64,000 nt of DNA from Thermoproteota archaeon (GTDB lineage Archaea; Korarchaeota; Korarchaeia; Korarchaeales; Korarchaeaceae), in the NCBI GenBank assembly GCA_027492205.1, contig JAOZFN010000009.1, forward strand, positions 32,001 to 96,000. Reading direction: 5' to 3'. The position numbers and the translations under genes are program-made. The notes under the pieces were generated by a model. The model made no database searches and had not been told where the DNA came from. It worked only from the letters and a program-made list of their open reading frames with translations. Numbering within the stretch: position 1 is the first letter of the stretch; every line of letters starts with the position of its first letter. Below are positions 3,641 to 35,582 of this stretch, one piece after another.

Positions 3641-3644
<4 letters not shown>

Positions 3645-5876: not shown

Positions 5877-5992
5877 CTGCGGGATTATGGCGGCCCCGAT
5901 ATATTAACCTCCGGCCCCCTGCCGCCCCCAGCGACGCCCCAGATCGCCCGGAGAATAAGCCTTTTTATCGAGGGGAGGGAGGCCCGCCCCAG

Positions 5993-11227: not shown

Positions 11228-13012
11228 ATGCCCGACGAGCGGGACCTGCCCTTCGGCGTCCTCGCCGAGTGCTACTACAGGCTGGAGTCGACGTCCGGCC
11301 GACTGGACATGATATCCCTCCTGAGGGATCTCCTTAGCAGGACCCCCCCCGACGTCATAGACAAGGTCGTCTACCTGACGCTGGGTCGGGTTGCCCCGGA
11401 GTTCGTCGACCTTGAGCTGGGGATAGGGGAGAAGCTGGCCCTCAGGGCCATCGCCATGGCCAGCGGCATGGCGGAGAGCAAGGTGGAGGCCAAGTACAAG
11501 GAGCTGGGCGACATCGGCCTAGTCGCGGAGTGGGCGATCCAGAACAGGAGCGTCCTGGCGTTTCTCAAGGAGGAGCTCACCGTCAACAGGGTCTTCAATG
11601 CCCTCGTCAAGATAGCCAAGACGTCCGGCCCGAGTTCTCAAGACATCAAGCTGAAGACCCTCTCAGGCCTTCTGGCGGATGCGGAGCCCCTGGAGGCAAG
11701 GTACATCATGAGAATCATAACGGAGAAGCTCAGGCTGGGCGTCAGGGACATGACGATCCTGGACGCGCTGGCAGAAGCCTTCCTAGGAGGCAGGCAGAGG
11801 AGGGAGATGCTCGAGAGGAAGTACAACACCTACCCCGACATCGGGAGGATAGCAAGGGTGCTCGCCGAGAAGGGCGAGGCTGGCCTGGAGGAGATAAAGG
11901 TCTCCCTAGGGGTCCCGATAAGGCCCATGCTCGCCCAGAGGCTCAGAGAGGCGTCGGAGATCCTCGAGAAGATGGGCAGCAGGTTCCTCGCGGAGATGAA
12001 GTACGACGGGGAGAGGATGCAGGTACACGTGTGGCCGGACGGGCGCGTGGAGATATTCTCCAGGAGGCTGGAGAACATCACCCACCCGTATCCGGACGTG
12101 AGGGAGGGCGTTCGAGAGGCCTTCAAGGGAGAGAGCGCGATACTAGATGGAGAGGGGGTGGCCTTCAACCCCGATACCGGCGAGCTGTACCCGTTCCAGG
12201 AGCTGATGCACCGCAGGCGGAAGTACGGCGTGGAGGAGATGATGGAGAAGTACCCGGTCGTGCTCTTCCTGTTCGATCTGCTCTACCTCAATGGCGAGGA
12301 GCTGATCGACAGGCCGCTGGAGGAGAGGCGGAGGCTTCTAGAGCACGTGATCGAGGAGAGCGACCGGATAAAGCTGGCCGAGGGCTGGCTCCAGGAGTGG
12401 ACCACCGAGGAGCTGGAGAAGAGGCTAGAGCTGGCCGTGGAGAGGGGCACCGAGGGGCTGATGATCAAGGACCCGGCCTCCAGGTACCAGGCGGGCGTCA
12501 GGGGCTGGAGCTGGGTGAAGTACAAGAGGAGCTACGTCAGCAAGATGGTCGAGCCCGTCGACCTGGTGGCGGTGGGCGGGTTCTGGGGGAGGGGGAAGAG
12601 GGCGGGAACCTACGGGGCCCTGCTCCTGGCGGTATACGACCCGGGGACCGACACGTTCAAGACCGTCTGCAAGATGGGCACCGGCTTCACCGACGAGCAG
12701 CTCGCCCAGCTCCCGGAGATCTTCAAGGAGTACGTGATAGAGCACAGGCACCCCAGCGTGGTCAGCAACATAGAGGCCGACGTCTGGTTCGTCCCGGCCA
12801 AGGTCCTGGAGGTCATAGGAGACGAGATCACGCTGAGCCCGGTGCACACCTGCGCCTGGGGGAAGGTGAAACCCGACGCCGGCCTGGCAATCAGGTTCCC
12901 GAGGTTCACCGGCAGGTGGAGAGACGACAAGTCGCCTCAAGACGCGACCACCGAGCAGGAGATAGTTGAGATGTACAGAGAGCAGCTAAGAATTATTTCA
13001 GAAAAGCGTTGA
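11228..13012 (+). CDS. lig: ATP-dependent DNA ligase
   Basis: PMLAQ, EMKYDGER adenylation motif, EGLMIK, WVKYK, RFPRF...RDDK. Confidence 0.97.
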   Translation: MPDERDLPFGVLAECYYRLESTSGRLDMISLLRDLLSRTPPDVIDKVVYLTLGRVAPEFVDLELGIGEKLALRAIAMASGMAESKVEAKYKELGDIGLVAEWAIQNRSVLAFLKEELTVNRVFNALVKIAKTSGPSSQDIKLKTLSGLLADAEPLEARYIMRIITEKLRLGVRDMTILDALAEAFLGGRQRREMLERKYNTYPDIGRIARVLAEKGEAGLEEIKVSLGVPIRPMLAQRLREASEILEKMGSRFLAEMKYDGERMQVHVWPDGRVEIFSRRLENITHPYPDVREGVREAFKGESAILDGEGVAFNPDTGELYPFQELMHRRRKYGVEEMMEKYPVVLFLFDLLYLNGEELIDRPLEERRRLLEHVIEESDRIKLAEGWLQEWTTEELEKRLELAVERGTEGLMIKDPASRYQAGVRGWSWVKYKRSYVSKMVEPVDLVAVGGFWGRGKRAGTYGALLLAVYDPGTDTFKTVCKMGTGFTDEQLAQLPEIFKEYVIEHRHPSVVSNIEADVWFVPAKVLEVIGDEITLSPVHTCAWGKVKPDAGLAIRFPRFTGRWRDDKSPQDATTEQEIVEMYREQLRIISEKR

Positions 13013-13020
13013 TTTTTTTT
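13013..13020 (+). terminator. Oligo-T terminator of the lig operon
   Basis: T8 tract immediately after the lig stop codon. Confidence 0.6.
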
Positions 13021-13079
13021 ATCATAATTATGGGAAGAGGGCATGTTGCTGGGAAGACCAGCACAAATTAAGCCTTGCG

Positions 13080-13235
13080 AAGGGCAATACCTTCGACAAC
13101 AGGAACTCCACGCCTCGGTCACCTGCCCCCAGGCCATCCCCATGTCTCTCCGGCCTGTGCCTGGCCCTCCCCACCTTCTCCACGACCTTGACGTAGAAGG
13201 CCTCCACCTCCTCCGGAGTGAACTCGACCGCCAAG
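13080..13235 (-). pseudogene. Possible Fic/Doc-like toxin remnant
   Basis: VEFTPEEVEAFYVKVVEKVG followed, after a frameshift, by GRRDMGM. Loosely resembles Doc N-termini; no intact HPFxDGNKR motif. Confidence 0.2.
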
Positions 13236-13358
13236 CCCCGAGGCCCTCCCGCGCCTGCCGGTAACCTTCGACATCTGCTGACGGCCTGCTTACAACGCAA
13301 GTCGGTAACGCACCGGGCCCTCATCCTTTTATGGTGGTGCCGCAGAGATCAATCAGGC

Positions 13359-13577
13359 ATGCCTGCCAAGGCAAAGGTGAGGCCCAACATCAGGGTGAGC
13401 TACGAGGGCAACCCGGAGGAGGACGACCTCACCCCAGAGGAGGTCGAGTCCCTCAAGGAGGCAATAATGGATGTCCTCATGGGCAGGACGATGAGCTTCA
13501 ACGAGCTTCTAGACGAGCTGGTGAGAGAGGGGAAGCTCACCGAGGAGGAGGCGGAGGAACTCAGGGAGCCCGAATAG
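13359..13577 (+). CDS. Small acidic antitoxin-like protein
   Basis: MPAKAK...EDDLTPEEVESLKEAIMDVLMGRTMSFNELL matches the LT.EE...I..G...S..EL pattern of archaeal RelB-type antitoxins. Confidence 0.55.
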   Translation: MPAKAKVRPNIRVSYEGNPEEDDLTPEEVESLKEAIMDVLMGRTMSFNELLDELVREGKLTEEEAEELREPE

Positions 13578-13787
13578 GATCGAGGGGATCCTGAACCCCA
13601 TTCCCCTGAACCCCCTCCTTCTGTGCCAGACGTCCGGGAGGTAGATGACCTTTTCCTCCCAACCGATCGCGTAGAAGACCCTGTAGGCCCTCCTGGGGCC
13701 GACCTTCAGCTCCCAGATCGGGGCCTCGACCCGACCCATGGGGGTATCCACGGGGAAGGAGCCCCTCAGCCTCTTCCCCGTCGTGGG
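13509..13787 (-). pseudogene. RelE/ParE-family toxin, C-terminal part (interrupted by IS607)
   Basis: PTTGKRLRG...IWELKVGPRRAYRVFYAI...KVIYL.DVWHR is a RelE fold C-terminus. Confidence 0.75.
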
Positions 13788-21967: not shown

Positions 21968-22297
21968 ATGGAAGAGAGTATAGAAGGGGAGAGGCTCAGA
22001 GATCCTATCACCGGACTCCCGATTGATCTTCTTGCCTGGGAGGAGATTGAGAAGGAGCAGCAGATCGTCAGAATCAAGGCGGAGCGCAGGAGGCACAAGC
22101 ACGTCACCATAATCGAGGGGCTCGACCTTCCCAAGGACATGATGAAGCGCCTTCTCAAGGACCTCAAGAGCAAGCTCGCCTGCGGCGGGACCTACAAGGA
22201 GGGTTACATACTCCTCCAGGGCGATCACAGGAGGAAGGTAAAGGACATACTCGTGAACGAGTGGGGGATCGAGGAGGACAAGATAGAGCTTGAGTGA
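21968..22297 (+). CDS. Translation initiation factor aIF1 (SUI1)
   Basis: K.VTIIEG...LKSKLACGGTYK...LQGDHR. Confidence 0.93.
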   Translation: MEESIEGERLRDPITGLPIDLLAWEEIEKEQQIVRIKAERRRHKHVTIIEGLDLPKDMMKRLLKDLKSKLACGGTYKEGYILLQGDHRRKVKDILVNEWGIEEDKIELE

Positions 22298-22353
22298 TCC
22301 GACAGCGGGGCAGGAATAAAACGGATCCCGGGGGCTGGCCCTGGGGTGATGTC

Positions 22354-23064
22354 ATGAGATACAAGATAATTGGGGATAACCTTCAGATGGTTCTGGTGGA
22401 GTTGGAGCCCGGCGAGAAGATCTACGCCGAGGCGGGCGCCCTTAACCACATGTCGGGGAACGTTCGGCTGAAGGCCACGGTCAGGGGAGGCTTCATCCAG
22501 GGGATAATGAGGAAGATAGCGGGGGAGAGCTTCTTTCTCACCGAGTTCACGGCCGAGGGAAGCCCTGGGGTAGTCGCCTTCTCCGGCACGGTGCCGGGCA
22601 AGATAACGGCCCTGAAGCTGGACGGGACCACTGAGTACTACGTTCAGAGGGGTGGGTTCTTGGCCGCCACCGACAGCGTCACGGTCAAGCCGGGAATCGC
22701 GAGGCGGCTCGGGGCGGCGCTCTTTGGAGGTGAGGGCCTCATAATGGAGAAAGTCAGCGGGGTCGGCACCGTCTTCGTGCACGCAGCCGGAGACTTCCTC
22801 GAGTACGACCTCAAGCCCGGGCAGGTGCTGAAGGTCGACACTGGGCAGCTGGTGGCCTTCGACGCTAGCGTGGACTACGACATCGAGAGGGTCGGCGGGA
22901 TAAGATCGATCCTGTTCGCTGGAGAGGGGCTGTTCCTGGCGACGCTGAGGGGCCCGGGGAGGGTCATCCTCCAGTCCATGAACATCCATGCGCTGGCCGC
23001 GGAGCTCGCGAGGTACATCCCAAGAGGGGGGAGCAGCGGATTCCAGCTGACCTTCGGAGACTGA
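22354..23064 (+). CDS. AIM24 / TIGR00266 family protein
   Basis: ATG 22354 after GGGGTGAT; AEAGA, GESFF, FGGEGL, GPGRVILQSM. Confidence 0.88.
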   Translation: MRYKIIGDNLQMVLVELEPGEKIYAEAGALNHMSGNVRLKATVRGGFIQGIMRKIAGESFFLTEFTAEGSPGVVAFSGTVPGKITALKLDGTTEYYVQRGGFLAATDSVTVKPGIARRLGAALFGGEGLIMEKVSGVGTVFVHAAGDFLEYDLKPGQVLKVDTGQLVAFDASVDYDIERVGGIRSILFAGEGLFLATLRGPGRVILQSMNIHALAAELARYIPRGGSSGFQLTFGD

Positions 23065-23068
23065 CCAC

Positions 23069-23395
23069 ATGCGGGCACCCAGCTCGAGGGAGGGGCGCTC
23101 AGACGTGAGGGCCAGGGACATGCTGGCGATCCTGGCCCTCGCCGCCCTCCTGCTGGTCCTGTCGGCGGTCATCCTCCTGTCGATATTGAAGTACCTCCCC
23201 CTGCTGAGCGCGGTCGTCCTCACTCTAATCGCCCTGTCGATAATCGTGTGGTTCGTATGGGGAACGCTCGCGGCCTCCGTGAAGATAATCGCCAGCCTGT
23301 ATTACGCGCTCCGTTCAAAGAGGGAAGGGGAGGTAGTGCGGCCTGTCAGGCTGGAGGAGGCCCGAGAGCCGGACAGGGGAGAGGGGGAGGACTAA
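23069..23395 (+). CDS. Small two-TM membrane protein
   Basis: Hydrophobic ORF directly after the AIM24 gene. Confidence 0.6.
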   Translation: MRAPSSREGRSDVRARDMLAILALAALLLVLSAVILLSILKYLPLLSAVVLTLIALSIIVWFVWGTLAASVKIIASLYYALRSKREGEVVRPVRLEEAREPDRGEGED

Positions 23396-23401
23396 GACTC
23401 C

Positions 23402-24853
23402 TCACGGAGCCCCAATCCTCTTCAAAGCCTCCCCGTACTTGATTAAGCCCACCATCGCCCTCGCGGCCCTCTCCGGGGTCGGGTAGGCCGGTATTCCAAG
23501 CTCGTCGAACCTCTCCCTGTAGGCGATTCCGTACTCTCCCTGCCCGATGTCGGCCACCAGGACGGGCTTGTCCCGCCTCTCCCTCACCTCGGCCGCGATC
23601 CTGTCTGGGAGGTCGGAGGTGAGGCCCGGCACGTGGTGAAGCGGGAGCACTATCACCCCGTCGACCTCGGGGGCGTCCAGGAGGATCCGGAGCGACTCCA
23701 CGAACGCGTCGTCCGTGGCGCTCCCCGTGACGTCCACCGGGTTGGCTACGGCCGAGATGGGGGGGATCACGCCCCTGTCCATCAGCTCCCTTAGCCTGGA
23801 CTGCGTCTCCTCGGAGAGCTGGACGACCACGGCCCCCCTGCTCTCGAGCTCGTCGGCCGTCATGACCCCAGCCCCGCCTCCGTCCGTTAGGACGGCGATC
23901 CTGGGCCCCTTGGCCGGAGGCTGCATGGAGAGGGCCTTGGTGACGTCGAAGAGTTCCTCCACTTCGTAGACCCTCACGACGCCAGCCTGCCTGAGGGCGG
24001 CGGAGTAAACCTCGTCAGCCCCCGCCAGCGCGGCTGTGTGCGAGCTCGCCGCCCTGGCGCCCGCCCCGGTCCTGCCAGCCTTGAGCACCACGACCGGCTT
24101 CTTCGGGACGGTTCTCCTGGCGGCCTCGATGAACCTCCTCCCCTCCTCGATCGACTCGGCGTATATCACGATCACCCTGGTTTTGGGGTCGTCGGCCAGG
24201 TACTCCATGAGCTCCACCTCGTCTATGTCCGCCTTGTTGCCGTAGCTTACGAACTTCGCCAGCCCCAGACCCTCGCCAGCCATGTAGTCCACGCAGGCCA
24301 CGCCAAACGCGCCGGACTGGGTGAGGAGGGATATGTTACCAGGCCCGGGCCTCGGGAGGGACAGGAGGTCCCTGCCACCCAGTTCTTTCTTGTAGGGAAG
24401 GAACATGGTGTCCACTCCCGTCTCTGGGCACACTATTCCCACGCAGTTCGGGCCCACCACGCGTATTCCGTGTTTCTTCGCCACCTCAACGAGTTTCTCC
24501 TGAAGCTCGACGCCTTCCCCTCCCACCTCGGCGAACCCACCTGAGATGACGATCACGTGCTTGATCCCCTTCCTGCCGCACTCGTCCACCACGGCCGGAA
24601 CTATCCTCGCCGGGACAACGATCACACCGAGGTCCACCGGCTCCGGCAGGTCGGTGACGCTCGGATAGGTGGGCACGCCCAAGATTGGTTCCTTCGCCTT
24701 GGGGTTCACTGCGTAGAGCCCGCCCTTGTAGAGGCCGCTCCTCTGGTTTTCGACCATAACCCTGAGGAGCTCGTGCCCCACCGAGCCCGGCTCCCGGGAG
24801 GCGCCTATCACGGCAACCGATTCCGGGTAGAAGAAGGGGTCCAGGTGCCCCAC
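23402..24853 (-). CDS. ADP-forming acyl-CoA synthetase (ACD) alpha subunit
   Basis: VAVIGAS, GPNCVG, TQSGA, SYGNKAD, KAGRT...AASSHTAALAG (phospho-His), NPVD. Confidence 0.92.
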   Translation of the reverse strand: MGHLDPFFYPESVAVIGASREPGSVGHELLRVMVENQRSGLYKGGLYAVNPKAKEPILGVPTYPSVTDLPEPVDLGVIVVPARIVPAVVDECGRKGIKHVIVISGGFAEVGGEGVELQEKLVEVAKKHGIRVVGPNCVGIVCPETGVDTMFLPYKKELGGRDLLSLPRPGPGNISLLTQSGAFGVACVDYMAGEGLGLAKFVSYGNKADIDEVELMEYLADDPKTRVIVIYAESIEEGRRFIEAARRTVPKKPVVVLKAGRTGAGARAASSHTAALAGADEVYSAALRQAGVVRVYEVEELFDVTKALSMQPPAKGPRIAVLTDGGGAGVMTADELESRGAVVVQLSEETQSRLRELMDRGVIPPISAVANPVDVTGSATDDAFVESLRILLDAPEVDGVIVLPLHHVPGLTSDLPDRIAAEVRERRDKPVLVADIGQGEYGIAYRERFDELGIPAYPTPERAARAMVGLIKYGEALKRIGAP

Positions 24854-24894
24854 GGTTATCCCGCGCGGCCGGCCGCGCATTCCGTTAAAAATCG

Positions 24895-26091
24895 TTAAGA
24901 CGAGGGGGCCGACTCGGCCTCCTCCCTGGCCTCGGCCGCGGTCAGCAGGTGCCTCTCAACCGCCTGCACGGAGGACTCGAACTCCTCCCTCGGCGTATCC
25001 TCCATCTTGGTGAGCTCCTCCTCGTGCACCTCGTAGTAGAGCCTGGCCTCCTTCAGGAGGGAGGGAAGCCTCACCAGCTCCGGCTCCACCAGCAGGATGG
25101 CTATCTCGAAGTACTTAGACCCAGGGGCGACCGCCAGCCCCTCTCTAACGTCCACCCCAGCTATCTTCTCGCTCAGGAGCCTCTTGGCCTCGAACACCGC
25201 GTCTACGTTGAGGTACTCCTCCGGACCCCTGACCACGAGCGCGGCCTTCAGGGCAGTGCCCGTCCTGACCTCGGCCAGGCAGCCCTCCCTGAGGGCGGCC
25301 TCCGTCAGGAACTCCAGGCTCCCGCCGACGGACTCCACCCTAGCCTTCATGTAGCAGGGTACCGTGAGGGAGGCCTCGAAGAACCTGAGGATGGACTTCA
25401 GGTCCTGCGAGTCGAAGGTGGTCTTGTACCCGCCCCTCAAGGGCTCCACGTCGGCCGCCGACATGGCGACCATGCAGCGGCCCACGAGGGAGTTTATCCT
25501 GTCTAGGACCTGCTCGTCGCTCAGCCCCGGCTCGTCCCTGAGGACGATCTCCCTGGCAGTCTCGTTGTCCAAGAGTATCAGCGAGTCGACCCTGCCGAGC
25601 ATGTTGGCCGTGGCTATGACCGAGTTGTAGGCGAACCTCATGCTCTCCTTGGGGAACTTGAAGGGGAGCACGCCCACGGAGACTATGGGCTGGGTGGGCG
25701 GGCCTCCCCCGCCGAGCATCTCCCTGACGTAGTCGGCTACCACCGGCATGGACCCGCTGCCGGTCCCCCCTCCCAAGGCCGCAGAGAGCACCACCGCCGT
25801 CGAGTTCGCTATGCCCCTCTCGGCGACGACCCTCGTGAAGAGTTCCTTGCTCTCGGGTTCCAGCATGGCCTTCATGGAGTCCTTCCACCTGGCGCCGACC
25901 CCAGCGCCGCCGAATTTGCCGAAGAGGTAGAACCTGTCCTTGAGCACCTGGAGCTTGGCCTGGTCAGACACAGAGGTGTTGAAGACTACGGCGTCCACCA
26001 TGGCCGACGGGGCCTCTCCCGTGAACGTGTCGTAGGTCCTGTCGATGATCGCCCCGCCTGCCCCGCCCAGCCCTATCCCAAACCAGCGCAT
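24895..26091 (-). CDS. Tubulin/FtsZ-superfamily GTPase, CetZ-like
   Basis: GLGGAGG, FNTS, GAGVG, signature LGGGTGSG, GVLP, LILLDNE, T7-like FDSQD. Confidence 0.88.
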   Translation of the reverse strand: MRWFGIGLGGAGGAIIDRTYDTFTGEAPSAMVDAVVFNTSVSDQAKLQVLKDRFYLFGKFGGAGVGARWKDSMKAMLEPESKELFTRVVAERGIANSTAVVLSAALGGGTGSGSMPVVADYVREMLGGGGPPTQPIVSVGVLPFKFPKESMRFAYNSVIATANMLGRVDSLILLDNETAREIVLRDEPGLSDEQVLDRINSLVGRCMVAMSAADVEPLRGGYKTTFDSQDLKSILRFFEASLTVPCYMKARVESVGGSLEFLTEAALREGCLAEVRTGTALKAALVVRGPEEYLNVDAVFEAKRLLSEKIAGVDVREGLAVAPGSKYFEIAILLVEPELVRLPSLLKEARLYYEVHEEELTKMEDTPREEFESSVQAVERHLLTAAEAREEAESAPSS

Positions 26092-26122
26092 TAGGCCACC
26101 TCTTCCTGACGGCCCAAGATGG

Positions 26123-26133
26123 GAATAATATTA
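26123..26133 (-). promoter_or_regulatory. TATA-like box upstream of the tubulin-like gene
   Basis: Minus strand TTAATATTATT about 35 nt before the ATG, plus GAGGTG SD. Confidence 0.45.
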
Positions 26134-26151
26134 ACGAGCGCCGACTCACGC

Positions 26152-28107
26152 TCAGGGTATCCTCCTCGCCAGTCTGCCGAGTAGCTCAGGCAGATCGCTG
26201 GCGGCACGATCGGTCCCGCCCGCTGAGAGTAGTCTCCTGAGTTCCGTGACCAAGCCGGACCTAACGGGCGCGCCCAGCCTCTCCTCCAGAAGGTCAAACA
26301 GTTCGGCGATCGCGTCGACCGCCGGAGCCGTGGGCGGCGCCTCAGGAGCTGGGGCTGGGGCCGGGAGCGGTGCGACGGGCTTCACGGCGGCTTCCTCTAT
26401 AGCCGGGGCTGTAGGTGTTTGCGTGGGCGCCTCCTCGAGTTTCGGTTCTGGCGTCTCGGCTGCGGCCGGCGCTACCGGCCCGCGCTCCGGGGCGCGCTCG
26501 GCCGGCTTAACAGCCTCCAGGCGCCGTACCTCCATCCGGGGAGCGGGCTTGGGCCTCGGGACTTCGACCCTGAGGGGCTTTATGAGATCGCCCTCGAGCT
26601 CCACGAGCCCCTCGTCCCTCAGCCTCCCGATCACCCACGGCCTCCACCTCTCCGGTATCTTCACCAGGTCCCCCACCCTAAGAGTCCCCGCCTTGGAGAG
26701 GGTAGTGAGGGCGTACTCCTTCCAGTAGGGGTAGAACCTCTCGGCGTCCGCCGCGGCCTCGAGGTACTCCGACAGCCTCCTCCGCACCTCCTTGAGCGGC
26801 GCCAGCGCCTGCCGGGCCTTCTCCTCAGGTGACATGGTAGGAACCTGAAGGGCCGCCCTTATGGTGGCCAGGACCGCGTCACCGTCCGAGACGAGCTTCA
26901 GCTGCTGAGAGATGGGTCCGGCCCTCTGCTCGGCTCTCCTGATGTATATCAGAAGTTCTAGGTTCTCTCTGATCCTCCTCACCTCCCGGTCGATCCTGTC
27001 CACGTCGTCTGGGTCCTTGACCTCGGCCCCCGCCCTGATCGAGGACAGCCTCACCGCCAGCGACCCTATCAGGGCGGTGAACGCGTTGGTGTTGAACTCC
27101 CTGTCGAGCATCTCGGCGGCCTTCTCGGCCTCGGAGATCAGGGCGAAGGCGCTCTCAAGCTCCAAGCTCAGTCTCTCTAGCTTCTCGAGCCCGTTCAGGA
27201 GGGGTTTGAGGGCCCTCTGCTCCAGAGACCTGAGGTCCACGAGGGCGTTCTCCATGCACTCCAGGTCCTCAGGGGGGCACCGGTTCTCGATCCGGGCGAT
27301 CCTGGCCTCGATCCACCTCACCGAGTCCTCGACGTAAACTGGGTCTATCCCGCTCTCCCTTATCCTGCTCGCCTTGAGGCGGATCGACTCTATCTGCCCC
27401 CTCACCCTAGAGAGCTCCGCCGCTAGGGCTGCCCTAGCCTCTTTAGACCTGGCGAGAACCTCTCTGATCTCTCTGATTTCTGAGTCGATCCTCTGGGTCT
27501 CTATAAGGGCGGCCTCGAGATCTGAAGTCGACTTCAGGGGAGAGCTCAGGAGTTCTTCCACCTTGGCGAGGTGGCCCCTCAGCTTGGAGGCTATCTCTGA
27601 GAACCCTCCCCTCTCGGCGGCGCCCAGCAGCTCCCTCGCATCCGCCTCGAGCGTCTCCAGCTTCCTCAGTAGGACTTTCCTGGCCTCCTCCCCTATCGCC
27701 CAGAGAACCGCCTCCAGAGAATCCATGAGGGACTCTATCCTGGGTGAGTACCGCCTGGCCACTCCCCCCTTCCCGAACGCCTTTCCCAGCGCCCTGGAGA
27801 GCGGACCCGGCTTCGAGGCGACGTCGGGATCGGAGGCCATCTCTCGAACGAGCTCGTCCACCTTCTCCACGACGCTCGTGAGTCTCGGCTTCAGCTCCTC
27901 CACCTGGAGGCTTCCGAGATCCTCCAGCCTCTGGAGTATGCCGTCCCCCCTCGCCGTCATCAGGAGGAGGAGCCCCAGTGCCTCCAGGATACCCGCCATC
28001 TCCAGGTTCTCGATCATGTACTCGACGACTTCGCTGGAGATCCCTCTCCTCTGCAGCTCTTTGAAGACGTATTCCCTGCTCGACTCGCTGCCCGACAGGG
28101 CAGGCAC
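26152..28107 (-). CDS. Long coiled-coil protein with wHTH-like segment and Pro/Ala-rich linker
   Basis: About 450 aa of heptads; YWKEYALTTL...IPERWRPWVIGRLRDEGLVELEGDLI; PAPAPAPEAPP linker; small helical C-terminal domain. Confidence 0.75.
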   Translation of the reverse strand: MPALSGSESSREYVFKELQRRGISSEVVEYMIENLEMAGILEALGLLLLMTARGDGILQRLEDLGSLQVEELKPRLTSVVEKVDELVREMASDPDVASKPGPLSRALGKAFGKGGVARRYSPRIESLMDSLEAVLWAIGEEARKVLLRKLETLEADARELLGAAERGGFSEIASKLRGHLAKVEELLSSPLKSTSDLEAALIETQRIDSEIREIREVLARSKEARAALAAELSRVRGQIESIRLKASRIRESGIDPVYVEDSVRWIEARIARIENRCPPEDLECMENALVDLRSLEQRALKPLLNGLEKLERLSLELESAFALISEAEKAAEMLDREFNTNAFTALIGSLAVRLSSIRAGAEVKDPDDVDRIDREVRRIRENLELLIYIRRAEQRAGPISQQLKLVSDGDAVLATIRAALQVPTMSPEEKARQALAPLKEVRRRLSEYLEAAADAERFYPYWKEYALTTLSKAGTLRVGDLVKIPERWRPWVIGRLRDEGLVELEGDLIKPLRVEVPRPKPAPRMEVRRLEAVKPAERAPERGPVAPAAAETPEPKLEEAPTQTPTAPAIEEAAVKPVAPLPAPAPAPEAPPTAPAVDAIAELFDLLEERLGAPVRSGLVTELRRLLSAGGTDRAASDLPELLGRLARRIP

Positions 28108-28108
28108 C

Positions 28109-28591
28109 TCAGAGGGTTTTCCGCCGCCTATTTTTATCGATGCTGGGTGGCACTTCGAAGAAGTTTCTGGCCAGCCTCGTGGCCCAAGCGTACATCTTGC
28201 CGTTCTTCTTCCTCACGCCGACCAGGCCCTCGCGCCTGAGCCTCTTGACGTGCCTGTAGGCCGACGCCCCCCTCACCCTCGCGAGGTCAACCAAGTACAT
28301 GCCGCCCCTCTCCAAGAGGACGGCGAGGGTCCTGAGCTCTCCCCTGGTCAGCTCCGGTCTCGGGGCCAGCCTCCCCACGACGCCGTGAAACTCCCGCTTG
28401 AGGGTCATGTACCACCCGGTGGGCCTCCGCTCGATGGCTATGGACCTGCCCCTGTAGACCTCCTCGAGTCGAGATATCCAGCCGGGCACCTCCTCTGGGG
28501 GCACACCCGCGACCTTGGCCAGTTCCTCCTCCGAGAGCGGCCTGCCGGCGATGAAGAGCGCGGCCTCAATCACCAACTCCGGTCTGGTCAA
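28109..28591 (-). CDS. scpB: Segregation and condensation protein B (kite)
   Basis: IEAALFIAGRPLS, ELTRGELRTLA, LARVRG..AY.HVK.L...GL, T..F-like end. Confidence 0.88.
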   Translation of the reverse strand: MTRPELVIEAALFIAGRPLSEEELAKVAGVPPEEVPGWISRLEEVYRGRSIAIERRPTGWYMTLKREFHGVVGRLAPRPELTRGELRTLAVLLERGGMYLVDLARVRGASAYRHVKRLRREGLVGVRKKNGKMYAWATRLARNFFEVPPSIDKNRRRKTL

Positions 28592-29153
28592 CCCGCCTCA
28601 ACCGTATTAGGATCTCACCAAAAAGGGTCTCCTGCTGAAGCTCGACCTCCCCCTCCAGCTCCATGTGGAGGAGGGAGACCATAGCCTCGGCCGCCTCGGA
28701 CCTGTCCCTGGCCAGCTCGTGGAAGGGAACCTCGCGGCGTCCCGATCTGCCGATCAACTCCAGGAGCCTGGACCTCACCCTGTCCAAGTGCTCCGCCAGG
28801 CTCATTGCCGCCGAGATTATCCTGGAGAGGCCGTCCTCAGCCCTCCCGAGCGTTCTCGCCCACTCGATCGCCGCGGCGAACTCTGAGGGTCTGGGCCTCC
28901 GGGCCGGCACCCTCCCCAGCAGGGGCTCGGGAATGGTGGCCGCGGGAGCGGGCCTAATCCGCCTGGCCCCGGGTTTGGTCCCCTGGGGAGCCTCCTCGTC
29001 CTCGCCCAGCTTCGCGAGTGAGTCGGCGAACCTCCTAAGCTCGACCGCCAGGGAGTAGAGGGTCCTGGCAGCCCAGGGCATGTCCCGGGTTCGGCGGAAC
29101 TCTGCGAGGACGCGCTCAACCCTCAGCAGTATATTCGACGCGATCGAACTCAT
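28566..29153 (-). CDS. scpA: Kleisin ScpA, short and divergent
   Basis: A..LY..AV.LR N-terminal helix; C-terminal wHTH VPFHEL...SLLHMELEGEVELQQETLFGEILI; lies between smc and scpB. Confidence 0.82.
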   Translation of the reverse strand: MSSIASNILLRVERVLAEFRRTRDMPWAARTLYSLAVELRRFADSLAKLGEDEEAPQGTKPGARRIRPAPAATIPEPLLGRVPARRPRPSEFAAAIEWARTLGRAEDGLSRIISAAMSLAEHLDRVRSRLLELIGRSGRREVPFHELARDRSEAAEAMVSLLHMELEGEVELQQETLFGEILIRLRRVDQTGVGD

Positions 29154-31476
29154 CGAGCCTCACGCCCACCACCTTAGACTCGCCGTTCACCATCCTCACG
29201 CCAAGTATGGCGTCCGCCTCCTCGAGCGTGTCCTTCTTGAGGGAGATTATGATCACCTGCGACCCCCTTGCCACCATCCTCCTCAGGAGGGCCGCGTACC
29301 TCTTGCAGTTCCTCCCGTCCAGCATCATGTCTGCCTCGTCGAAGAAGTAGAGCGGGCTGGGTCGGACGCTCTGGAGGGCGTATATGAAGGCCAAGGCCGT
29401 GAGAGACTTCTCCCCGCCCGAGAGCGCCTCCATCGGAACCTCTCCCTTCTCCGGGAGGTTGACCCTGACCTCGAGCTCCAGTCTCGGCCACTCGCCCGAC
29501 ATCCAGACCTCACCCTCCCCGCCGAACATCTCTCCTATGGCCTCGTTGAATGCCTTCGACACCTTCTCGACGGTTTCCCTCAGGACCGCATCCCTCTCCT
29601 TTGCTATCTCGTCCAGGGCCCTCTCTATCGAGGCCCTCGCCTCTTCCAGCTGGGCCAGCGTCTCATCCATCTCCCGGGCCTTCGCCTCCTCCCTCCTCAG
29701 CTCCTCCAACGCGTCTGGACCGACCAGCGGAATGGTCCGGAGCCTGGCCGCCACGGCGGCGTACTCGGACTCCGGATCGTCGGACTCGGCCGCCTCCACG
29801 TCCTTCAGGCTCGCGAGCCTTGTCCTGAGCTCCTCTAGCCTCTGAGTCAGCTTACCTCTCTCCTCGGCGACGGCGCGCATCCTTCGCTCGTACGCCAGCC
29901 TCGAACTCATGGCCCTCTCAAGGTCGGCTCTGAGTTCGTCTATCCTCCTCCTCACCTCCCTCAGGGCCTCCTCAACCTCATGGGCGCGCTCCGGCGGGGG
30001 GAGTTCCCGCGCCCTCGCCTCCAGCTCCTCCAGCCTCTCCATGACCCTCTCCCGCTCCTCCAGCAGCTCTTCCAGCCTCCTCCTGAGGCGCCTCTCCTGC
30101 GCTGGGGAGGGGGGAGAGGACAGGATGCTGCCGTCCCTCTCGAGGATCTCGCCGTGCAGGCTGACGAATCGGTACCTGCCAACGTCGGACCTGGGGATGG
30201 AGTCCAAGTCCTCCACGAGCACGGCGTTCCCGACAATCGCCCCCACGAGTCCCTCCACGCCGGGCTCCGCCAGGACGTATTCTCTGAGCAGCCCGAGGGA
30301 GTACTCGGGCGGGTTCACGGGTCTCGGAGGCCTCAGGACGTCAAGCGGGAGCACCCTTATCCTGCGGCTCAGTCTCGAGCCTCTGAGGGACCTCACCATC
30401 TCGAGTCCGGCCTCCAGGGTTCTGACCACCGCATCGCCAACCCTCGCCCCGGCGACCGCCCTGTAGGCCATCTCGTAGCCCTCCACGGGCCTCACCAGTT
30501 CCGCGACTATCCCTACGTAATCCGGGTGACTCGTCACCGACCTCGGGGGCGGGGAGGCCCCCATGGTCGCCAAGAGGGTTCTCACCCCCTCCAGCTCCGC
30601 TTCAAGGGACCTGAGCCTCTCCCTGAGGGTCGCTATTCGGGCCTTGACCGTGGCGGCCTCACGGGCCCTCTTGAGTTCTTCCGAGCCCTCCAGCTTCCTG
30701 AGTTCCGACTCAGCCCGCCTGACCTCCCTCTTAATCTCCTCGATCTCCTCCTCGGATATGGCGGGGGCCTCCGGGGGCTGCAGCTCTTCTAGGTCCCTCT
30801 CGGTTCTCTCCATCCTCCTCAGTAGGACGGCCTTCTCCAGGGAAGCCAGTCTGCGCTCCAGCTCTTCCCTCTCGCGGTACGCCTCCGCCCTCCTCCTCAG
30901 AAACTCCAGCCTCTCCAGCCTGTCCCTCTGGAGCGCCCTGAGCACCCTGATGCGCTCCTCCACTCGCTCTAACTCTCTCAGCGTCTCCTCTCTCTTCCTC
31001 TCGAACTCCTCGACTCCGCTGATCTCCAGAATCAGCGCTGCCCTCTCCCTCGGGGTCGACTCGATTACTGCAGTGACCTCGCCCTGGCTGACGAAGTTGT
31101 GTCCGTCGGCCCTTAGGCCGAGCTCTGCCAGGGCGTCTCTGACCTCGTTGGCGGACGCCAACCTGCCGTTGAGTCTGTAGGACCCTCCAGATCTAGTTAT
31201 CCTCCTCTCGAGCCTCAGCGCCCCACCGGGGTGTCTGAGGACCAGCTCGACGGAGCAGGTGGCGGCCCCCTTCCTGATCAGGCCCCTGAGCCCCTGGGAC
31301 CTGAGCCAGCTCCCCCTGGCGCCCATGGCGAACATGACCGCCTCCATCACGTTGGACTTGCCCGAGCCGTTGGGCCCTGTGATGGCGGTCAAGTCGGAGG
31401 GGAACTCTATGGCGGCGCTGCGGAAGGACTTGAAGTTCTTCAGCCTGATCTTCGTGAGCCTGACGCCTGTGGTCAG
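29116..31476 (-). CDS. smc: Chromosome segregation protein SMC, short-armed (about 786 aa)
   Basis: IRLKNFKSF, GPNGSGKSN, FVSQG, hinge (YVGIVAELV...RFVSLHGEILERDG), LSGGEKS, FFDEAD. The N-terminal strand lies upstream of the track start (31392), so CTG 31476 is needed. Confidence 0.92.
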   Translation of the reverse strand: MTTGVRLTKIRLKNFKSFRSAAIEFPSDLTAITGPNGSGKSNVMEAVMFAMGARGSWLRSQGLRGLIRKGAATCSVELVLRHPGGALRLERRITRSGGSYRLNGRLASANEVRDALAELGLRADGHNFVSQGEVTAVIESTPRERAALILEISGVEEFERKREETLRELERVEERIRVLRALQRDRLERLEFLRRRAEAYREREELERRLASLEKAVLLRRMERTERDLEELQPPEAPAISEEEIEEIKREVRRAESELRKLEGSEELKRAREAATVKARIATLRERLRSLEAELEGVRTLLATMGASPPPRSVTSHPDYVGIVAELVRPVEGYEMAYRAVAGARVGDAVVRTLEAGLEMVRSLRGSRLSRRIRVLPLDVLRPPRPVNPPEYSLGLLREYVLAEPGVEGLVGAIVGNAVLVEDLDSIPRSDVGRYRFVSLHGEILERDGSILSSPPSPAQERRLRRRLEELLEERERVMERLEELEARARELPPPERAHEVEEALREVRRRIDELRADLERAMSSRLAYERRMRAVAEERGKLTQRLEELRTRLASLKDVEAAESDDPESEYAAVAARLRTIPLVGPDALEELRREEAKAREMDETLAQLEEARASIERALDEIAKERDAVLRETVEKVSKAFNEAIGEMFGGEGEVWMSGEWPRLELEVRVNLPEKGEVPMEALSGGEKSLTALAFIYALQSVRPSPLYFFDEADMMLDGRNCKRYAALLRRMVARGSQVIIISLKKDTLEEADAILGVRMVNGESKVVGVRLDEFDRVEYTAEG

Positions 31477-32324
31477 GAGATCACCCTCCTGCCCTCCTCA
31501 GTGATCCTGAGGATGCTTCCCCTTGGGGTCTTCTCCATCTCGATGAAGCCCCCCTCGCTCAGCCTCCTAGCCCTGCGCCAGATCGTAGTCTTGGGCATCT
31601 CGAGGGCAGCCCTAAGCTCGGACAGGTAGGCAGATCCGCCCATCTGGTCCAGCTTCCTGAGGAGGGCTATGTCGTCGTACGAGAGCGGGGGCCTCTCTCC
31701 GGAGGTCCTCCTCCCCCGCGCCCGGAGGAGGAGTGCTATAGCGGCCGCCACGACGGCCCCGGCGGTCGCGATCCCGACCCAGAGGTATCTCAGCTCCCAC
31801 TCCGGCTGTGGTCCGTGAGATCTCGCCAGGAGGACGTAGGAGACCCAACAGGGGGTCTCCATGAAGACTATTGTCCTGTTGTCCACCGAGGTGACCGCGG
31901 AGGGCAGCTCAGACATCCCGACTAGGAGCGAGCCCTTCGGGAGTCGGATCTCGCAGGTACCCAGGTTGACGCTCAAGTTCACCGTCCAGACGTCTCCCTC
32001 CTTGGCAGTTATGGCCTGGGTCTCGTATGTGACGTTAACGAAGTCCGAGACCTCCCACACCAGGAGGATCCCTTCTGAGACGTTGTAGCCCAGAGGAACG
32101 CCTGCGTTGTCCGAGACGAGGAGAGACTCGGCCCCGGGTAGCAGGGGTATCGCGCTCACGAACCCCTCGGAGCTCCAATTCACAGAGACGAGGGCCCACC
32201 CGTCCTCGTACAGGGTGACCCTGCAGGGGGTCGGCTCGGCCTGAGCCTCGGCCACAATCAGCGGAACCAGAGCCATCAGCGCGATTGCCAGCGCGACACC
32301 CCGCCGCGGACGCAATGGATACAC
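31473..32324 (-). CDS. Membrane-anchored protein with C-terminal wHTH (COG2512-like)
   Basis: Signal peptide, beta-rich ectodomain, TM, then YLSELRAALEMPKTTIWRRARRLSEGGFIEMEK. Confidence 0.8.
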   Translation of the reverse strand: MYPLRPRRGVALAIALMALVPLIVAEAQAEPTPCRVTLYEDGWALVSVNWSSEGFVSAIPLLPGAESLLVSDNAGVPLGYNVSEGILLVWEVSDFVNVTYETQAITAKEGDVWTVNLSVNLGTCEIRLPKGSLLVGMSELPSAVTSVDNRTIVFMETPCWVSYVLLARSHGPQPEWELRYLWVGIATAGAVVAAAIALLLRARGRRTSGERPPLSYDDIALLRKLDQMGGSAYLSELRAALEMPKTTIWRRARRLSEGGFIEMEKTPRGSILRITEEGRRVIS

Positions 32325-32333
32325 CCCGGGGCC

Positions 32334-33083
32334 TCAATAGAACCCGGAGACCGCGTACTCCAGCCTCACCACACCCTTGCCCTTGCTCTTCCTCTTGAGG
32401 ATCTTGATGCCTCCTATCTCCCCGGTCCTCGCGACGTGAGTCCCGCCGCAGGGGTCCGCGCCCACGCCCACGATCTCCACGATCCTGATCTCTTCCATCC
32501 CCTCCTGAGCGGGTCCCAGGCCCGCGCCGTATCTCGCTAGGAGTTCCTCTGCCTTGTCCCTCGGCAGCACGTTGGCCCTGACCTCCGCGTCCATCTGGAC
32601 TATTCTATTGGCCTCCTCCTCTATCGCGGGGAGCTGATCTCGTGTTATCTTCGCAGCGAAGTCGAGCCGGCCAGAGCCCACACTCAGGCCGCTGCCGGCC
32701 AGCGCCGTTCGGCCGAAAAGTCGATCGACCGCGTGCATTAGCACGTGTGCCGCCGTGTGTGTCCTCATTATGGCGTACCGCCTATCCCAGTCCAGCACTC
32801 CCCTAACCCCATCACCCGGGGAGAAGGACCCCTCGAGTTCGCCGATGTGAAGCACGTCCTCTCCCCTATTCTCCGCCCAGACGACCTTGAGCTTGCCGGA
32901 GGGGCCCTCCAGAACCCCCGTGTCAGCTGGCTGTCCGCCGCCCTCGGGGTAGAAGGCGGTCCTGTCCAGCACCGCTCCTACCTTGCCGTCCGGGAGCTCC
33001 TCCACCGAGGCGACTATTGCGGTGAACTCCTTCAAGTACTGATCTTGGTAGTACAGCCTCTCCGTCGGCACAGGACCCTCCAA
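32334..33083 (-). CDS. alaX: Alanyl-tRNA editing protein, AlaX-M type
   Basis: LYYQDQY, TAFYPEGGGQPAD, MRTHTAAH, CGGTHV. Confidence 0.92.
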   Translation of the reverse strand: MEGPVPTERLYYQDQYLKEFTAIVASVEELPDGKVGAVLDRTAFYPEGGGQPADTGVLEGPSGKLKVVWAENRGEDVLHIGELEGSFSPGDGVRGVLDWDRRYAIMRTHTAAHVLMHAVDRLFGRTALAGSGLSVGSGRLDFAAKITRDQLPAIEEEANRIVQMDAEVRANVLPRDKAEELLARYGAGLGPAQEGMEEIRIVEIVGVGADPCGGTHVARTGEIGGIKILKRKSKGKGVVRLEYAVSGFY

Positions 33084-33122
33084 CGGCTCCTAAGTAAAAT
33101 GATTTTTCGGCTCGGGACGACC

Positions 33123-34343
33123 CTACTCCTTGCGCTGGAGGGAGAGTCTCTTCGTGGTTACGGTGAGGTCTACCGAGACTCCGAACCTGGCCACCTCTCG
33201 GAGGAAGGGCTCTGGGTCTATGGCGCGCTCGGGGAGGTGAACTCCAGGCTTCAGTTCTCCCTCTACCAGCATCCTGGCGGCCGTTATCGCTGGGGCGGCC
33301 ACCAAGATGCCGTGGGCCGACGCCGGAGGTTTCGTCCAAGACTCGGCCGATGCGGTGACAACGACTGTGGCTGGCCGATCTGAGATTGACCCCACGGCCG
33401 TGACGACCATCACGTCTACGTCGTCAGGGGTCCAGGATTTCCCCTGGATGGTCCTGTTGACTAGGTACTCCAAGATCTCCATAGGAGACCTTCCGCACCC
33501 CGGGAGATCAAGAGGATCCTCGGAGGCGAACCCCAGCTTAACCAAGAGACCGTACTTCTCGAGTAGGTCATCCGGGAATGAGAGCTTGTAGTCGACCAGC
33601 CTGATCCCGCGGTCCCTGAATGTCTCCCCGAGGCTCCAGGTCTCCGGGTGATCGACGTAGTAGCACGGCTGCCTCCCCACCGGTTCCGGGAACTCGAACT
33701 CCTCCCTGCCACCCCAGGGCAGCGTGGGCCTCGGCCCCTCCGCCGTCCACACCTCCCCCCCGTAGACGAACTCGTCCAGGATCGTCTCGAACGAGTAGGG
33801 AACCGGGAGCGGGATACCCAGGCCCTCGTAGTCAACCCGATCGACCCAACCCTCTCTCATCCGGATCTCTCGGACCTCCTCGAGCTGGTCAACGGCCAGC
33901 CTCGCGAGGACGTTGATCAGGCCCGGCGAGCCGCCCATGGCCGGGAGGGCCGGCACTCCGGCTCGCCGGAAGTCTTCGTCCAGAGAGAGCTGCCACTGGA
34001 GCGTCTCCCTGTCCGACCCGAAGTCTATGTATGGGATCCGCGCCTCCAAGGCCGCCTTCGTGAGCTGGGGGATCACCTTGAAGATCGCCCCGTTGATCAG
34101 GACGTCGTACTCCCTCACCAGGCCGACGACGGTGTCCACATCCCGCGCGTCGAGCTGGGCCCAGGAGACCTCCTTGGACCCAGTGAGGGTTCGACACTCC
34201 CCCGCAACTCTCTCGGCAGCCTCCGGGTCCTTGTCCGCTATCAGCAGCTCCCCCACCCATCCGGCGAGATCGTCTCTGGCCAGGGAGATCGCCACAACCC
34301 TCGACGTCATGCCCGCCCCGACCAGCGCCACCCGTGCAGACAT
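33123..34343 (-). CDS. Saccharopine dehydrogenase-like oxidoreductase
   Basis: VGAG Rossmann fold, YIDF, MGGSPGLIN, TILDE, HPE, GV.LPE. Confidence 0.8.
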   Translation of the reverse strand: MSARVALVGAGMTSRVVAISLARDDLAGWVGELLIADKDPEAAERVAGECRTLTGSKEVSWAQLDARDVDTVVGLVREYDVLINGAIFKVIPQLTKAALEARIPYIDFGSDRETLQWQLSLDEDFRRAGVPALPAMGGSPGLINVLARLAVDQLEEVREIRMREGWVDRVDYEGLGIPLPVPYSFETILDEFVYGGEVWTAEGPRPTLPWGGREEFEFPEPVGRQPCYYVDHPETWSLGETFRDRGIRLVDYKLSFPDDLLEKYGLLVKLGFASEDPLDLPGCGRSPMEILEYLVNRTIQGKSWTPDDVDVMVVTAVGSISDRPATVVVTASAESWTKPPASAHGILVAAPAITAARMLVEGELKPGVHLPERAIDPEPFLREVARFGVSVDLTVTTKRLSLQRKE

Positions 34344-34394
34344 CCAGCCTTCACCCTCGTCAGTCTATTAACCTGAACCACCGGAATTGACCGG

Positions 34395-35582
34395 GTGGGC
34401 CCATTGGATTGGGAGGTTGAGGTTCTCAGGCGCCTGGTCGCCCTCGACACCGACGCCACCCAGAGGAAGAACTACCGCGAGGCCGCCGAGCTGGTGGCCG
34501 GATACTTCAGGGAGATCGGCCTGAGCGTCGAGATCGTGGGGGAGGAGGTACCCAACGTCGTGGCGAGGCTCGACGTCGGCGCCGAGAGGGACCTCGCGCT
34601 CGTGAGCCACTACGACGTCGTCCCGGCCGGGGGACCGTGGGTCCTGAACGGCAGGGAGATCGACCCCTTCGAGCCCCTCCTGGTTAACGGCCGCCTCTAC
34701 GGGAGGGGTGCGGCCGACGACAAGTCTGCCATCGCGGCCACGCTGGGTGCCCTCAGGCGGATAGTCGAGAGCGGGCGGGGGGGTGAGCTGAGGTACAACC
34801 CCCTGGCCATCGTGGTCGGGGACGAGGAGGTCGGCGGCGCGGGGATAAGGGAGGTCGTCGAGGGGGCCGGGATCACGGGGGACGCCGCGGTCATACTGGA
34901 CGCCGCCATAGAGCACCTCAGCGTGGGCGCGAGCGGGGTGGCCGACGGCTGGATAACCGTCAGGGGGAAGGGAGGGCACGCCGGATACCCGCACAAGACG
35001 AGAAACCCCATCTACGGTCTGGTCAGGCTCATCTGCGAGCTGGAGAGCTTCTCGAGGCACAGGGCCACGAGGCTCTCCGACCTCCCGAGCCCGCCGGACT
35101 CCCCCGTGGAGAGGGTGTGGGGAAGGTTCACGGTCACGATGCTGCGCGCCGGGGAGAAGCACAACGCCGTGCCGAGCGAGGCCAGGCTAGGGTTCGACAT
35201 GAGGATCGTGCCCGGAGAGGATCCAGAGCGGGCGCTCGAGGAGCTGAGGTCCTTCCTCGCGGACGCCGCGGCCAGGCTGGGCCTCGAGGTGTCGATGGAG
35301 CTCGTGGGGGAGGTGAACACCGGTTGGATGACCCCGCCCGACCACCCCTTCGTGAGGGAGGCGCTCGACGCCATGGAGAGGGCCTTGGGCATGAGGAAGA
35401 TGGCCGCAGAGCTGGGAGGGAACGACGGCTACCTCTTCGCGTCGAGGGGGGTTCCCACGGTCGCCATAGGCGCCATCAGGGTGGACAACAACATACACGC
35501 CCCCCTAGAGTTCGTCTACCTGGAGGACGTAGCCGCGCTCGAGAGGTTCATCACGGAACTCCTAGTCCCAGGCGGGGCGTGA
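34395..35582 (+). CDS. M20 family metallopeptidase (ArgE/DapE-like)
   Basis: SHYDVVP, GRGAADDK, DEEVG, GHAG, IHAPLE. Confidence 0.9.
   Translation: MGPLDWEVEVLRRLVALDTDATQRKNYREAAELVAGYFREIGLSVEIVGEEVPNVVARLDVGAERDLALVSHYDVVPAGGPWVLNGREIDPFEPLLVNGRLYGRGAADDKSAIAATLGALRRIVESGRGGELRYNPLAIVVGDEEVGGAGIREVVEGAGITGDAAVILDAAIEHLSVGASGVADGWITVRGKGGHAGYPHKTRNPIYGLVRLICELESFSRHRATRLSDLPSPPDSPVERVWGRFTVTMLRAGEKHNAVPSEARLGFDMRIVPGEDPERALEELRSFLADAAARLGLEVSMELVGEVNTGWMTPPDHPFVREALDAMERALGMRKMAAELGGNDGYLFASRGVPTVAIGAIRVDNNIHAPLEFVYLEDVAALERFITELLVPGGA

Follow-up and report, generated by a model that had tools for sequence, protein, structure and literature searches.

Does a tubulin-superfamily GTPase encoded just behind the genes of a prokaryotic condensin work with that condensin, or with the helical protein whose gene lies between them? 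The question is raised by a stretch of 64,000 nucleotides (G000:C11:32001-96000, here called the window) from a Korarchaeotal genome of 1.94 Mb, assembled from a metagenome in 17 contigs. On the minus strand of the window, smc, scpA and scpB are followed by the gene for a 651-residue helical protein (26152-28107; the rod protein), and then by the gene for a 398-residue CetZ-like GTPase (24895-26091; the tubulin). An earlier note, made from the sequence alone, read all of these as one module, in which the helical protein would link a tubulin-like filament to condensin-organised DNA. Our verdict is that the rod protein and the tubulin are a new tubulin-adaptor pair, and the conservation of their gene order, together with a controlled model of their complex, supports a two-gene module that is separate from the condensin trio. 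Archaeal tubulin homologs have few known partners, and the locus provides a compact and testable pair: a divergent CetZ-like tubulin, encoded in a thermophile lineage that is uncultured, and a family-specific rod protein.

Conservation of the gene pair

Orthologs of the tubulin were sought in 41 genomes and were recognised at E values of 4e-57 or better. They are present in all 15 genomes of four genera, g1 (the genus of the window), g2, g4 and g5, and in none of the 10 genomes of a further genus, g3, where the best matches (E 1e-4 to 1e-6) are at the level of FtsZ. The gene for the rod protein is directly upstream of the tubulin gene in 11 of the 15 tubulin-carrying genomes, with all four genera represented. 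The spacing is 56-60 nt in g1 (G000, G001, G003 and G004) and 45-46 nt in g5 (G008 and G011); in g2 (G005, G009, G012 and G015; loci L020-L023) the two genes overlap by 4 nt, and in g4 (G007) they are separated by 1551 nt. The locus of G002 is broken by a contig end, and the rod protein was not found in G018, a genome that is 71% complete. The inserted sequence in G007 (L016 10617-12108) contains overlapping open reading frames of 327 and 464 residues with no Pfam match.

A profile of the rod protein family was also run against the flanks of three other archaeal CetZ genes and one non-canonical tubulin locus, and gave no match there. It is worth adding that in an unrelated archaeon (G038) the 3' end of a CetZ gene, whose product passes the CetZ_C cut-off, is overlapped by the gene for a 288-residue coiled-coil protein (L026 2597-3463) with a weak C-terminal winged helix of TrmB/MarR type (E 0.014-0.044). 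Compared by hhalign, this protein shows no homology to the rod protein family (probability 0.4%), and may be an analogous CetZ partner.

Predicted complex of the rod protein and the tubulin

The complex was modelled from residues 1-513 of the rod protein and the tubulin, using our own alignments and with three controls. The association of these two proteins, as the earlier note had suggested, is predicted with a score of 0.62 (0.62, 0.63 and 0.57 in the separate runs), against 0.00 for the best control. Of 80 solved complexes, 58 reach the mark set for the tool, as do 2 of 110 mismatched pairs; these counts are only a rough guide when one's own alignments are supplied. At least 89% of the contacts are common to the runs, and the pLDDT of the partner is at least 86.

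On the rod protein, the modelled interface consists of residues 447-465 and 482-488, and includes W462, P485 and W488. On the tubulin it consists of residues 250-269 and residue 326. By alignment and model, residues 250-269 are the S7-H9 loop and helix H9. They form the most conserved stretch of the C-terminal domain in this tubulin clade, with R251, L259, L262, E264, A266 and L267 invariant throughout the clade and the invariant G270 following directly. In tubulins, lateral contacts are made by this face. The model supports, though it does not show, binding of the rod protein to the tubulin C-terminal domain through its winged helix, and the three residues W462, P485 and W488 provide a predicted binding motif that can be mutated.

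Structure and distribution of the rod protein

The rod protein has no family match in Pfam or NCBIfam, and its description here comes from its predicted structure, conservation and distribution. The predicted model (pLDDT 80) contains a helical-bundle rod (residues 9-473), a winged helix (residues 455-513; 26569-26745), a disordered linker rich in Pro and Ala (residues 514-593; 26329-26568; pLDDT <50) and three C-terminal helices. The protein had been called a coiled-coil protein in the earlier note: it is indeed helical, but is modelled as a rod of successive bundles carrying a winged helix, and not as one long coiled coil.

Structural comparison using VIA-align gave clear winged-helix matches for residues 455-513, namely 9j89_D (Z 9.2, rmsd 1.6, 59 residues aligned), 4kmf_A (Z 8.8, rmsd 1.6, 56 aligned) and 9f27 (Z 8.5, rmsd 1.8, 58 aligned), while for the rod it returned generic three-helix bundles only. 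EzrA (4uxv_A) matched with a Z of 9.6 over 378 residues at an rmsd of 21.5, a Z value that is common for helical proteins. Foldseek found nothing in the PDB at E <= 0.001 (the best being 0.11); the gamma-tubulin ring complex entries 7as4_I and 9qvm_A, with Foldseek probabilities of 0.10 and 0.05, were set aside as noise. A sequence profile run against the PDB gave nothing below E 0.038, there is no sequence similarity to EzrA, and the first match in the ESM Atlas, at 0.81, is under the level taken as a lead.

Among 1.84 billion representative proteins, only 30 are matched by a profile at E <= 0.001, of which 11 are at <= 1e-30. Using family profiles, members were found in 31 of 35 genomes of the Korarchaeotal family f1, as well as in G000, and in none of 7 genomes from other families of the phylum nor in any of the 365 non-f1 genomes in a sample of 401. 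Judged from these searches, the rod protein belongs to a new protein family that is confined to one Korarchaeotal family, f1.

Apart from the start Met, W462, P485 and W488 alone are invariant or nearly so when 29 diverse members are compared; these three lie in a winged-helix motif YPxW...IPxxWRxW. The linker rich in Pro and Ala occurs in g1 and g4 only, and its length differs between g1 genomes; at 26459-26503, its coding sequence holds 3.8 copies of an imperfect 12-nt tandem repeat. The YPxW...IPxxWRxW motif is found, too, in metagenomic proteins whose N-terminal parts differ. Two of these (P0049 and P0051) have long hydrophobic, membrane-like regions, and two others (P0036 and P0039) a different N-terminal domain.

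The tubulin-superfamily GTPase

The GTPase gene product matches PF00091 (3.6e-17; 63.7 bits against a cut-off of 33), and the GGGTGSG motif of the T4 loop, which had been noted as intact, is present. The T7 motif is D227-x-x-D230, which corresponds to DxxD/E of CetZ and to NxDxxD of FtsZ and is conserved in the g1, g4 and g5 tubulins; DNE at 175-177 was considered as the T7 loop and is ruled out by the alignment. Two helices at the C-terminus (341-394) are conserved. Against CetZ_C (PF21011) the protein scores 17.2 bits, under the cut-off of 21.6, and two of its g5-type relatives carry precomputed PF21011 matches. It has no FtsZ_C match, and reaches 40.6 bits with TIGR00065, against a cut-off of 295.2. 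A canonical FtsZ is encoded elsewhere in the genome (G000:C10; FtsZ_C 110 bits).

The closest solved structures found by phmmer are CetZ1 (4b46, 1.3e-13), a Methanosaeta CetZ (3zid, 5.9e-13) and CetZ2 (4b45, 1.2e-8). With a profile, CetZ1 is matched at 1.9e-21, whereas the best FtsZ reaches 2.8e-12 and TubZ (4xcq) 5.7e-7. Foldseek ranks CetZs (1.1e-14 to 9.5e-14) above both eukaryotic beta-tubulins (about 2e-11) and FtsZ (1.4e-10). In the AlphaFold model, the GTPase domain and two C-terminal helices are good, and residues 212-335 are poor.

A maximum-likelihood tree of 38 rows, from which near-duplicates (G001, G008 and G012) and a second g3 gene array (G019) were left out, gathers the Korarchaeal tubulins (9 rows) in one clade with support of 99/99. 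This clade and three proteins that score above the CetZ_C cut-off are separated by a split of 100/99 from 23 FtsZ-type rows. A phylogeny of the GTPase against named references had been suggested. The tree carries no rows for named CetZ1 or CetZ2, other reference tubulins, TubZ, artubulin or OdinTubulin, and within its scope it puts the GTPase on the CetZ side but not inside the three CetZ rows: the Korarchaeal clade has a long stem (1.12) and groups with two non-canonical proteins. On these sequence comparisons it is filed as a CetZ-like, non-canonical tubulin-superfamily protein in a separate long-branched clade, and not as a member of the CetZ family.

These comparisons bear on a further explanation, in which the locus would be a chromosomal partition system akin to TubZRC that works without condensin, the winged helix of the rod protein acting as a DNA adaptor that couples a treadmilling filament to a centromere-like site. 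The layout, with an adaptor followed by a tubulin, recalls tubR-tubZ, and the winged helix matches nucleic-acid binders, both Z-alpha domains (Z 9.2 and 8.8) and those of MarR type (Z 8.1-8.4). However, the tubulin is far closer to CetZ than to TubZ, as the profile values above demonstrate, and there is no iteron or centromere-like repeat array in 22000-35000, where the sole tandem repeat is the coding one within the linker. In addition, the model turns the conserved winged-helix face towards the tubulin, and the locus is chromosomal, in housekeeping surroundings. We consider partition of this type quite improbable.

Relation to condensin

The reading put forward in the earlier note has the rod protein connecting CetZ-like filaments with the DNA that Smc-ScpAB organises, which would give a tubulin-based chromosome segregation system. 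It would apply to g1 and g4 at least. The gene order invites this: the rod protein gene begins 1 nt past scpB in the window and 3 nt past it in g4, and the string smc-scpA-scpB-rod protein-tubulin is found in 6 genomes of these two genera. The rod protein also has a winged helix, as do ScpB and kleisins, and g1, g4 and g5 all carry an SMC along with a tubulin whose T7 motif is intact.

The survey of neighbourhoods in relatives goes largely against it, since smc-scpAB adjoins the pair in g1 and g4 only. The tubulins of these two genera are sisters in the tree (93/89), and one rearrangement can therefore explain the adjacency. In g5 the two systems are unlinked, with SMC and tubulin on different contigs in all four genomes. 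In g2 the pair persists although ScpB was found in none of the five genomes; an SMC query gave no match at E <= 1e-20 in four of the five, an SMC hinge was found in one, at a contig end, and two g2 genomes are at least 90% complete. In g3 the opposite holds, as smc-scpA-scpB is present and none of the 10 genomes yielded the tubulin. Furthermore, the partner of the winged helix in the model is the tubulin, not DNA or ScpAB, and unrelated genes on the same strand flank the locus at equally close spacing. The proposal of a single module thus survives in one half, the rod protein and tubulin (adjacent in 11 of 15 genomes and modelled as a complex), and loses the other, the link to condensin, on the evidence of g2, g3 and g5. 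A condensin bridge relies on gene order in a single lineage, and we think it very unlikely; the association of condensin and tubulin genes is probably a local, lineage-specific arrangement and not a functional coupling.

A more elaborate version would combine the two. In g1 and g4, a tubulin-adaptor module might have been recruited into the condensin operon, with the winged helix on the filament and the other end of the rod protein on ScpB, the kleisin or DNA, so that the polymer would move or position condensin-loaded chromosomes. This is a distinctly long shot. If it were true, a condensin-recruited tubulin module would represent a prokaryotic forerunner of a spindle-like arrangement.

Paralogs next to Ras-like GTPases

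Each g3 genome has one paralog of the rod protein, of 528-560 residues. In G013 its gene overlaps that of a 201-residue Ras/Arf-like GTPase, with which it forms an operon. A tandem array of five FtsZ-like genes, encoding proteins of 323-342 residues (PF00091 1.5e-27 to 3e-41), is situated about 3 kb away. The features concerned are at 2592-8158 and 11463-13651 of locus L057 (G013:C1:898000-914000). The layout of open reading frames is the same in G019 (L058), where the GTPase gene is the one checked by similarity. Overall, a Ras-like GTPase gene lies within flanks of about 1.5 kb at 16 of 16 g3 paralog loci and at both of the 2 loci of second paralogs in g2, and at none of 4 further paralog loci in g5.

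The family thus recurrently neighbours GTPase genes of two unrelated folds, which suggests a GTPase-associated role. It also means that the W/P/W motif cannot be specific for this tubulin. From here it is a short step to the idea that the rod protein is a general regulator or effector of GTPases (of GAP, GEF or effector type), each member of the family pairing with the GTPase that it controls. The full association with Ras/Arf-like genes in g3 and at the second-paralog loci of g2 fits this, as does the fact that the tubulin-paired subfamily adjoins a GTPase too and that the W/P/W motif is common to both subfamilies. Tubulin-type and Ras-type GTPases, however, differ in fold and in their regulators, and it would be unusual for one motif to serve both; in the model, contact is made with the C-terminal domain of the tubulin, far from its nucleotide pocket, and the further g5 paralogs are without a Ras-like neighbour. 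General regulation of this kind is in our view unlikely. The paralogs nevertheless hint at a wider family of GTPase adaptors in the Korarchaeota.

Condensin genes

The smc gene (29116-31476) encodes, if translation begins at the CTG described below, a protein of 786 residues with SMC_N (5.2e-45) and SMC_hinge (8.8e-15) matches and a GPNGSGKS motif. Its arms are only about 150 residues long. Against the prokaryotic SMC model of NCBIfam (TIGR02169) it scores 416.9 bits in three matched stretches, under the cut-off of 729.4, which fits arms of approximately half the usual length. Relatives in families f1 and f2 have SMC proteins of about 765-830 residues, and those in f4 of about 790-950. In PMC5344682, a minor mode of SMC arm length is given as 163 residues, close to the value here. 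This is the sole hinge-bearing SMC of G000, the other SMC_N matches being two proteins, of 578 and 912 residues, in addition to weaker ones of ABC type.

The start of smc is non-canonical. There is no in-frame ATG, GTG or TTG ahead of the Walker A region and the conserved N-terminus, and the first canonical start, TTG at 31392 (giving an open reading frame of 29116-31392), would cut off about 28 conserved N-terminal residues. The sole start compatible with the overlap described for the upstream gene is CTG at 31476-31474, which overlaps the upstream stop as CTGA and stands 8 nt after the GGAGG core of a strong, near-perfect Shine-Dalgarno sequence, GGAGGGTGATC. The same type of CTG start is seen in G001 and G003; in G004 an in-frame GTG stands in place of the GTC of the window, and the start codon in g4 is TTG.

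The next gene (28566-29153) encodes 195 residues with no Pfam or NCBIfam match. It had been called scpA. The call holds as regards position, between smc and scpB, and weak kleisin similarity, with no family assignment behind it: the C-terminal region of Rad21_Rec8 matches at E 0.081, and a profile built from 5 sequences gives weak matches (E 0.0054-0.96), mostly to the C-terminal winged helices of kleisins, among them Rad21 (8p0a_C, 0.0054), Pyrococcus ScpA (4i99_C, 0.041) and 5xns_C (0.046). It is best read, from position and these profile matches, as a putative kleisin. The third gene (28109-28591) encodes the 160-residue ScpB kite subunit, the single ScpB match in G000 (PF04079, 6.2e-22; 78.3 bits against a cut-off of 27.4).

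The three genes form a compact trio in g3 (G013), g5 (G011, where scpA was placed by position only, with no tblastn match) and family f2 (G025), with different genes after each. According to PMC7055376, the three genes are likewise adjacent in 3 of 3 species of Korarchaeota. The trio is the ordinary, short-armed condensin of this organism.

Layout of the locus

Ahead of smc on the same strand is the gene for a 283-residue membrane protein (31473-32324), which ends in TGA at 31475-31473. Its sequence starts with a hydrophobic segment at the N-terminus, continues with an extracytoplasmic domain and another hydrophobic segment, and has at its C-terminus a winged helix-turn-helix, for which both matches are under the cut-off (HTH_27, 0.0045; MarR, 0.0074). 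The gene is present in the three other g1 loci and not in the g4 locus, so that it belongs to g1 loci only.

The arrangement of the six minus-strand genes was recomputed and agrees with the earlier description, in which five overlap or are 1 nt apart and the GTPase follows 60 nt on. The overlaps are 38 nt between smc and scpA (29116-29153) and 26 nt between scpA and scpB (28566-28591); the gaps are 1 nt between scpB and the rod protein gene (28109 and 28107) and 60 nt between that gene and the tubulin gene (26092-26151). Unrelated flanking genes on the same strand are spaced in a similar manner, with 39 nt from saccharopine dehydrogenase to AlaX, 9 nt from AlaX to the membrane protein and 14 nt from the tubulin to an ADP-forming acyl-CoA synthetase, and because of this tight packing alone is no sign of a shared function here. 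The locus is chromosomal and lies amid housekeeping genes.

The gap ahead of the tubulin contains a Shine-Dalgarno sequence, GAGGTGG, at 26096-26102, and about 38 nt upstream of the ATG an AT-only box, TTAATATTATT. This is the TATA-like box of the earlier note; it is conserved within the genus, and its position has to be moved by one base, from 26123-26133 to 26124-26134. It is conserved in G001, G003 and G004, in one of which it reads TTAATAATATC, and in g5 the sequence TTTAAAATA is found about as far upstream of the tubulin. From its composition and position, the box is a possible internal archaeal promoter for the tubulin gene, which agrees with the caveat of the earlier note about a looser linkage of the GTPase.

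Interpretation

Taking all of this together, the explanation that we favour, at a probability of roughly 0.55, is that two separate units abut at this locus: an ordinary condensin, and a cytoskeletal module of rod protein and tubulin in which the rod serves as a scaffold or anchor for the filament. The tubulin, with its intact GTP-binding loops and T7 Asp-x-x-Asp, would polymerise in a GTP-dependent manner. The rod protein is predicted to dock onto the C-terminal domain of the tubulin by way of its Trp-bearing winged helix, and could then act as a filament-associated scaffold or anchor, comparable to EzrA, SepF or TubR. Its far ends, that is the N-terminal domain and the C-terminal helices, might connect the filament to something else.

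Several observations weigh against this. The W/P/W motif is equally conserved in the paralogs of g3, a genus that lacks this tubulin, and it may serve another common partner, in which case the modelled interface would be wrong. The single-chain model of the tubulin C-terminal domain is poor, with pLDDT <50 over residues 212-270. In two of the four g5 genomes (G014 and G017) the genes for the rod protein and the tubulin fall on separate contigs, and the upstream flank of the tubulin gene consists of other sequence. In g1 and g4, the rod protein gene starts 1-3 nt past the scpB stop, and judging from this spacing it is likely to be co-transcribed with the condensin genes, so that a functional tie in these two genera keeps a small probability. 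Lastly, all four g2 tubulin sequences have lost the two T7 aspartates, with LSAQS or LSAQG instead of FDSQD, and g2 falls on a long branch; the g2 tubulin may have changed its function, which would make g2 a weaker counter-example to a link with condensin.

Comparison with known systems

In the accessible article texts on Korarchaeota CetZ, SMC/ScpA, FtsZ or CetZ neighbourhoods, supplements apart, neither this gene cluster nor the rod protein family is described. Each part of the locus nevertheless resembles a known system. The condensin genes have the SMC head and hinge, a putative kleisin and the ScpB kite of Smc-ScpAB, in the order smc-scpA-scpB. They differ in the short arms of about 150 residues, in the length of the SMC protein (786 residues), in a TIGR02169 score under the cut-off and in the non-canonical start codon.

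In type III partition of plasmids and phages (TubZ-TubR-tubC), a tubulin-superfamily GTPase is encoded next to a winged-helix adaptor. The pair described here is alike in having such a GTPase gene beside that of a winged-helix protein. It is unlike in that the tubulin is not TubZ-like and the partner is a protein of 651 residues that is mostly a helical rod; there are also no centromere-like repeats, the locus is chromosomal, and the winged helix is modelled on the body of the tubulin and not on its tail. EzrA is a regulator of FtsZ. A rod of successive antiparallel helical bundles, encoded together with a tubulin-superfamily protein, is reminiscent of EzrA and the spectrin-repeat type, though with an rmsd of 21.5 and no sequence similarity.

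The closest likeness is to CetZ. CetZ structures (4b46, 4b45 and 3zid) are the best matches of the tubulin in sequence, profile and fold, the tubulin lies on the CetZ side of the split between FtsZ and CetZ in the tree, and it has the T4 GGGTGSG and T7 DxxD motifs as in the three aligned CetZ rows. The accessible part of PMC9856176, a study of CetZ diversity, draws the boundary of the family at the Thermococcales and does not mention the Korarchaeota, although its Table S1 may list Korarchaeotal proteins. The CetZ neighbourhoods that it describes contain genes for type IV pili, cofactor biosynthesis and a sugar epimerase, with no dedicated CetZ adaptor in that part of the paper. The tubulin of the window differs from CetZ in its CetZ_C score (17.2 against 21.6 bits), in its place in a long-branched clade outside the CetZ rows, and in having a dedicated upstream partner.

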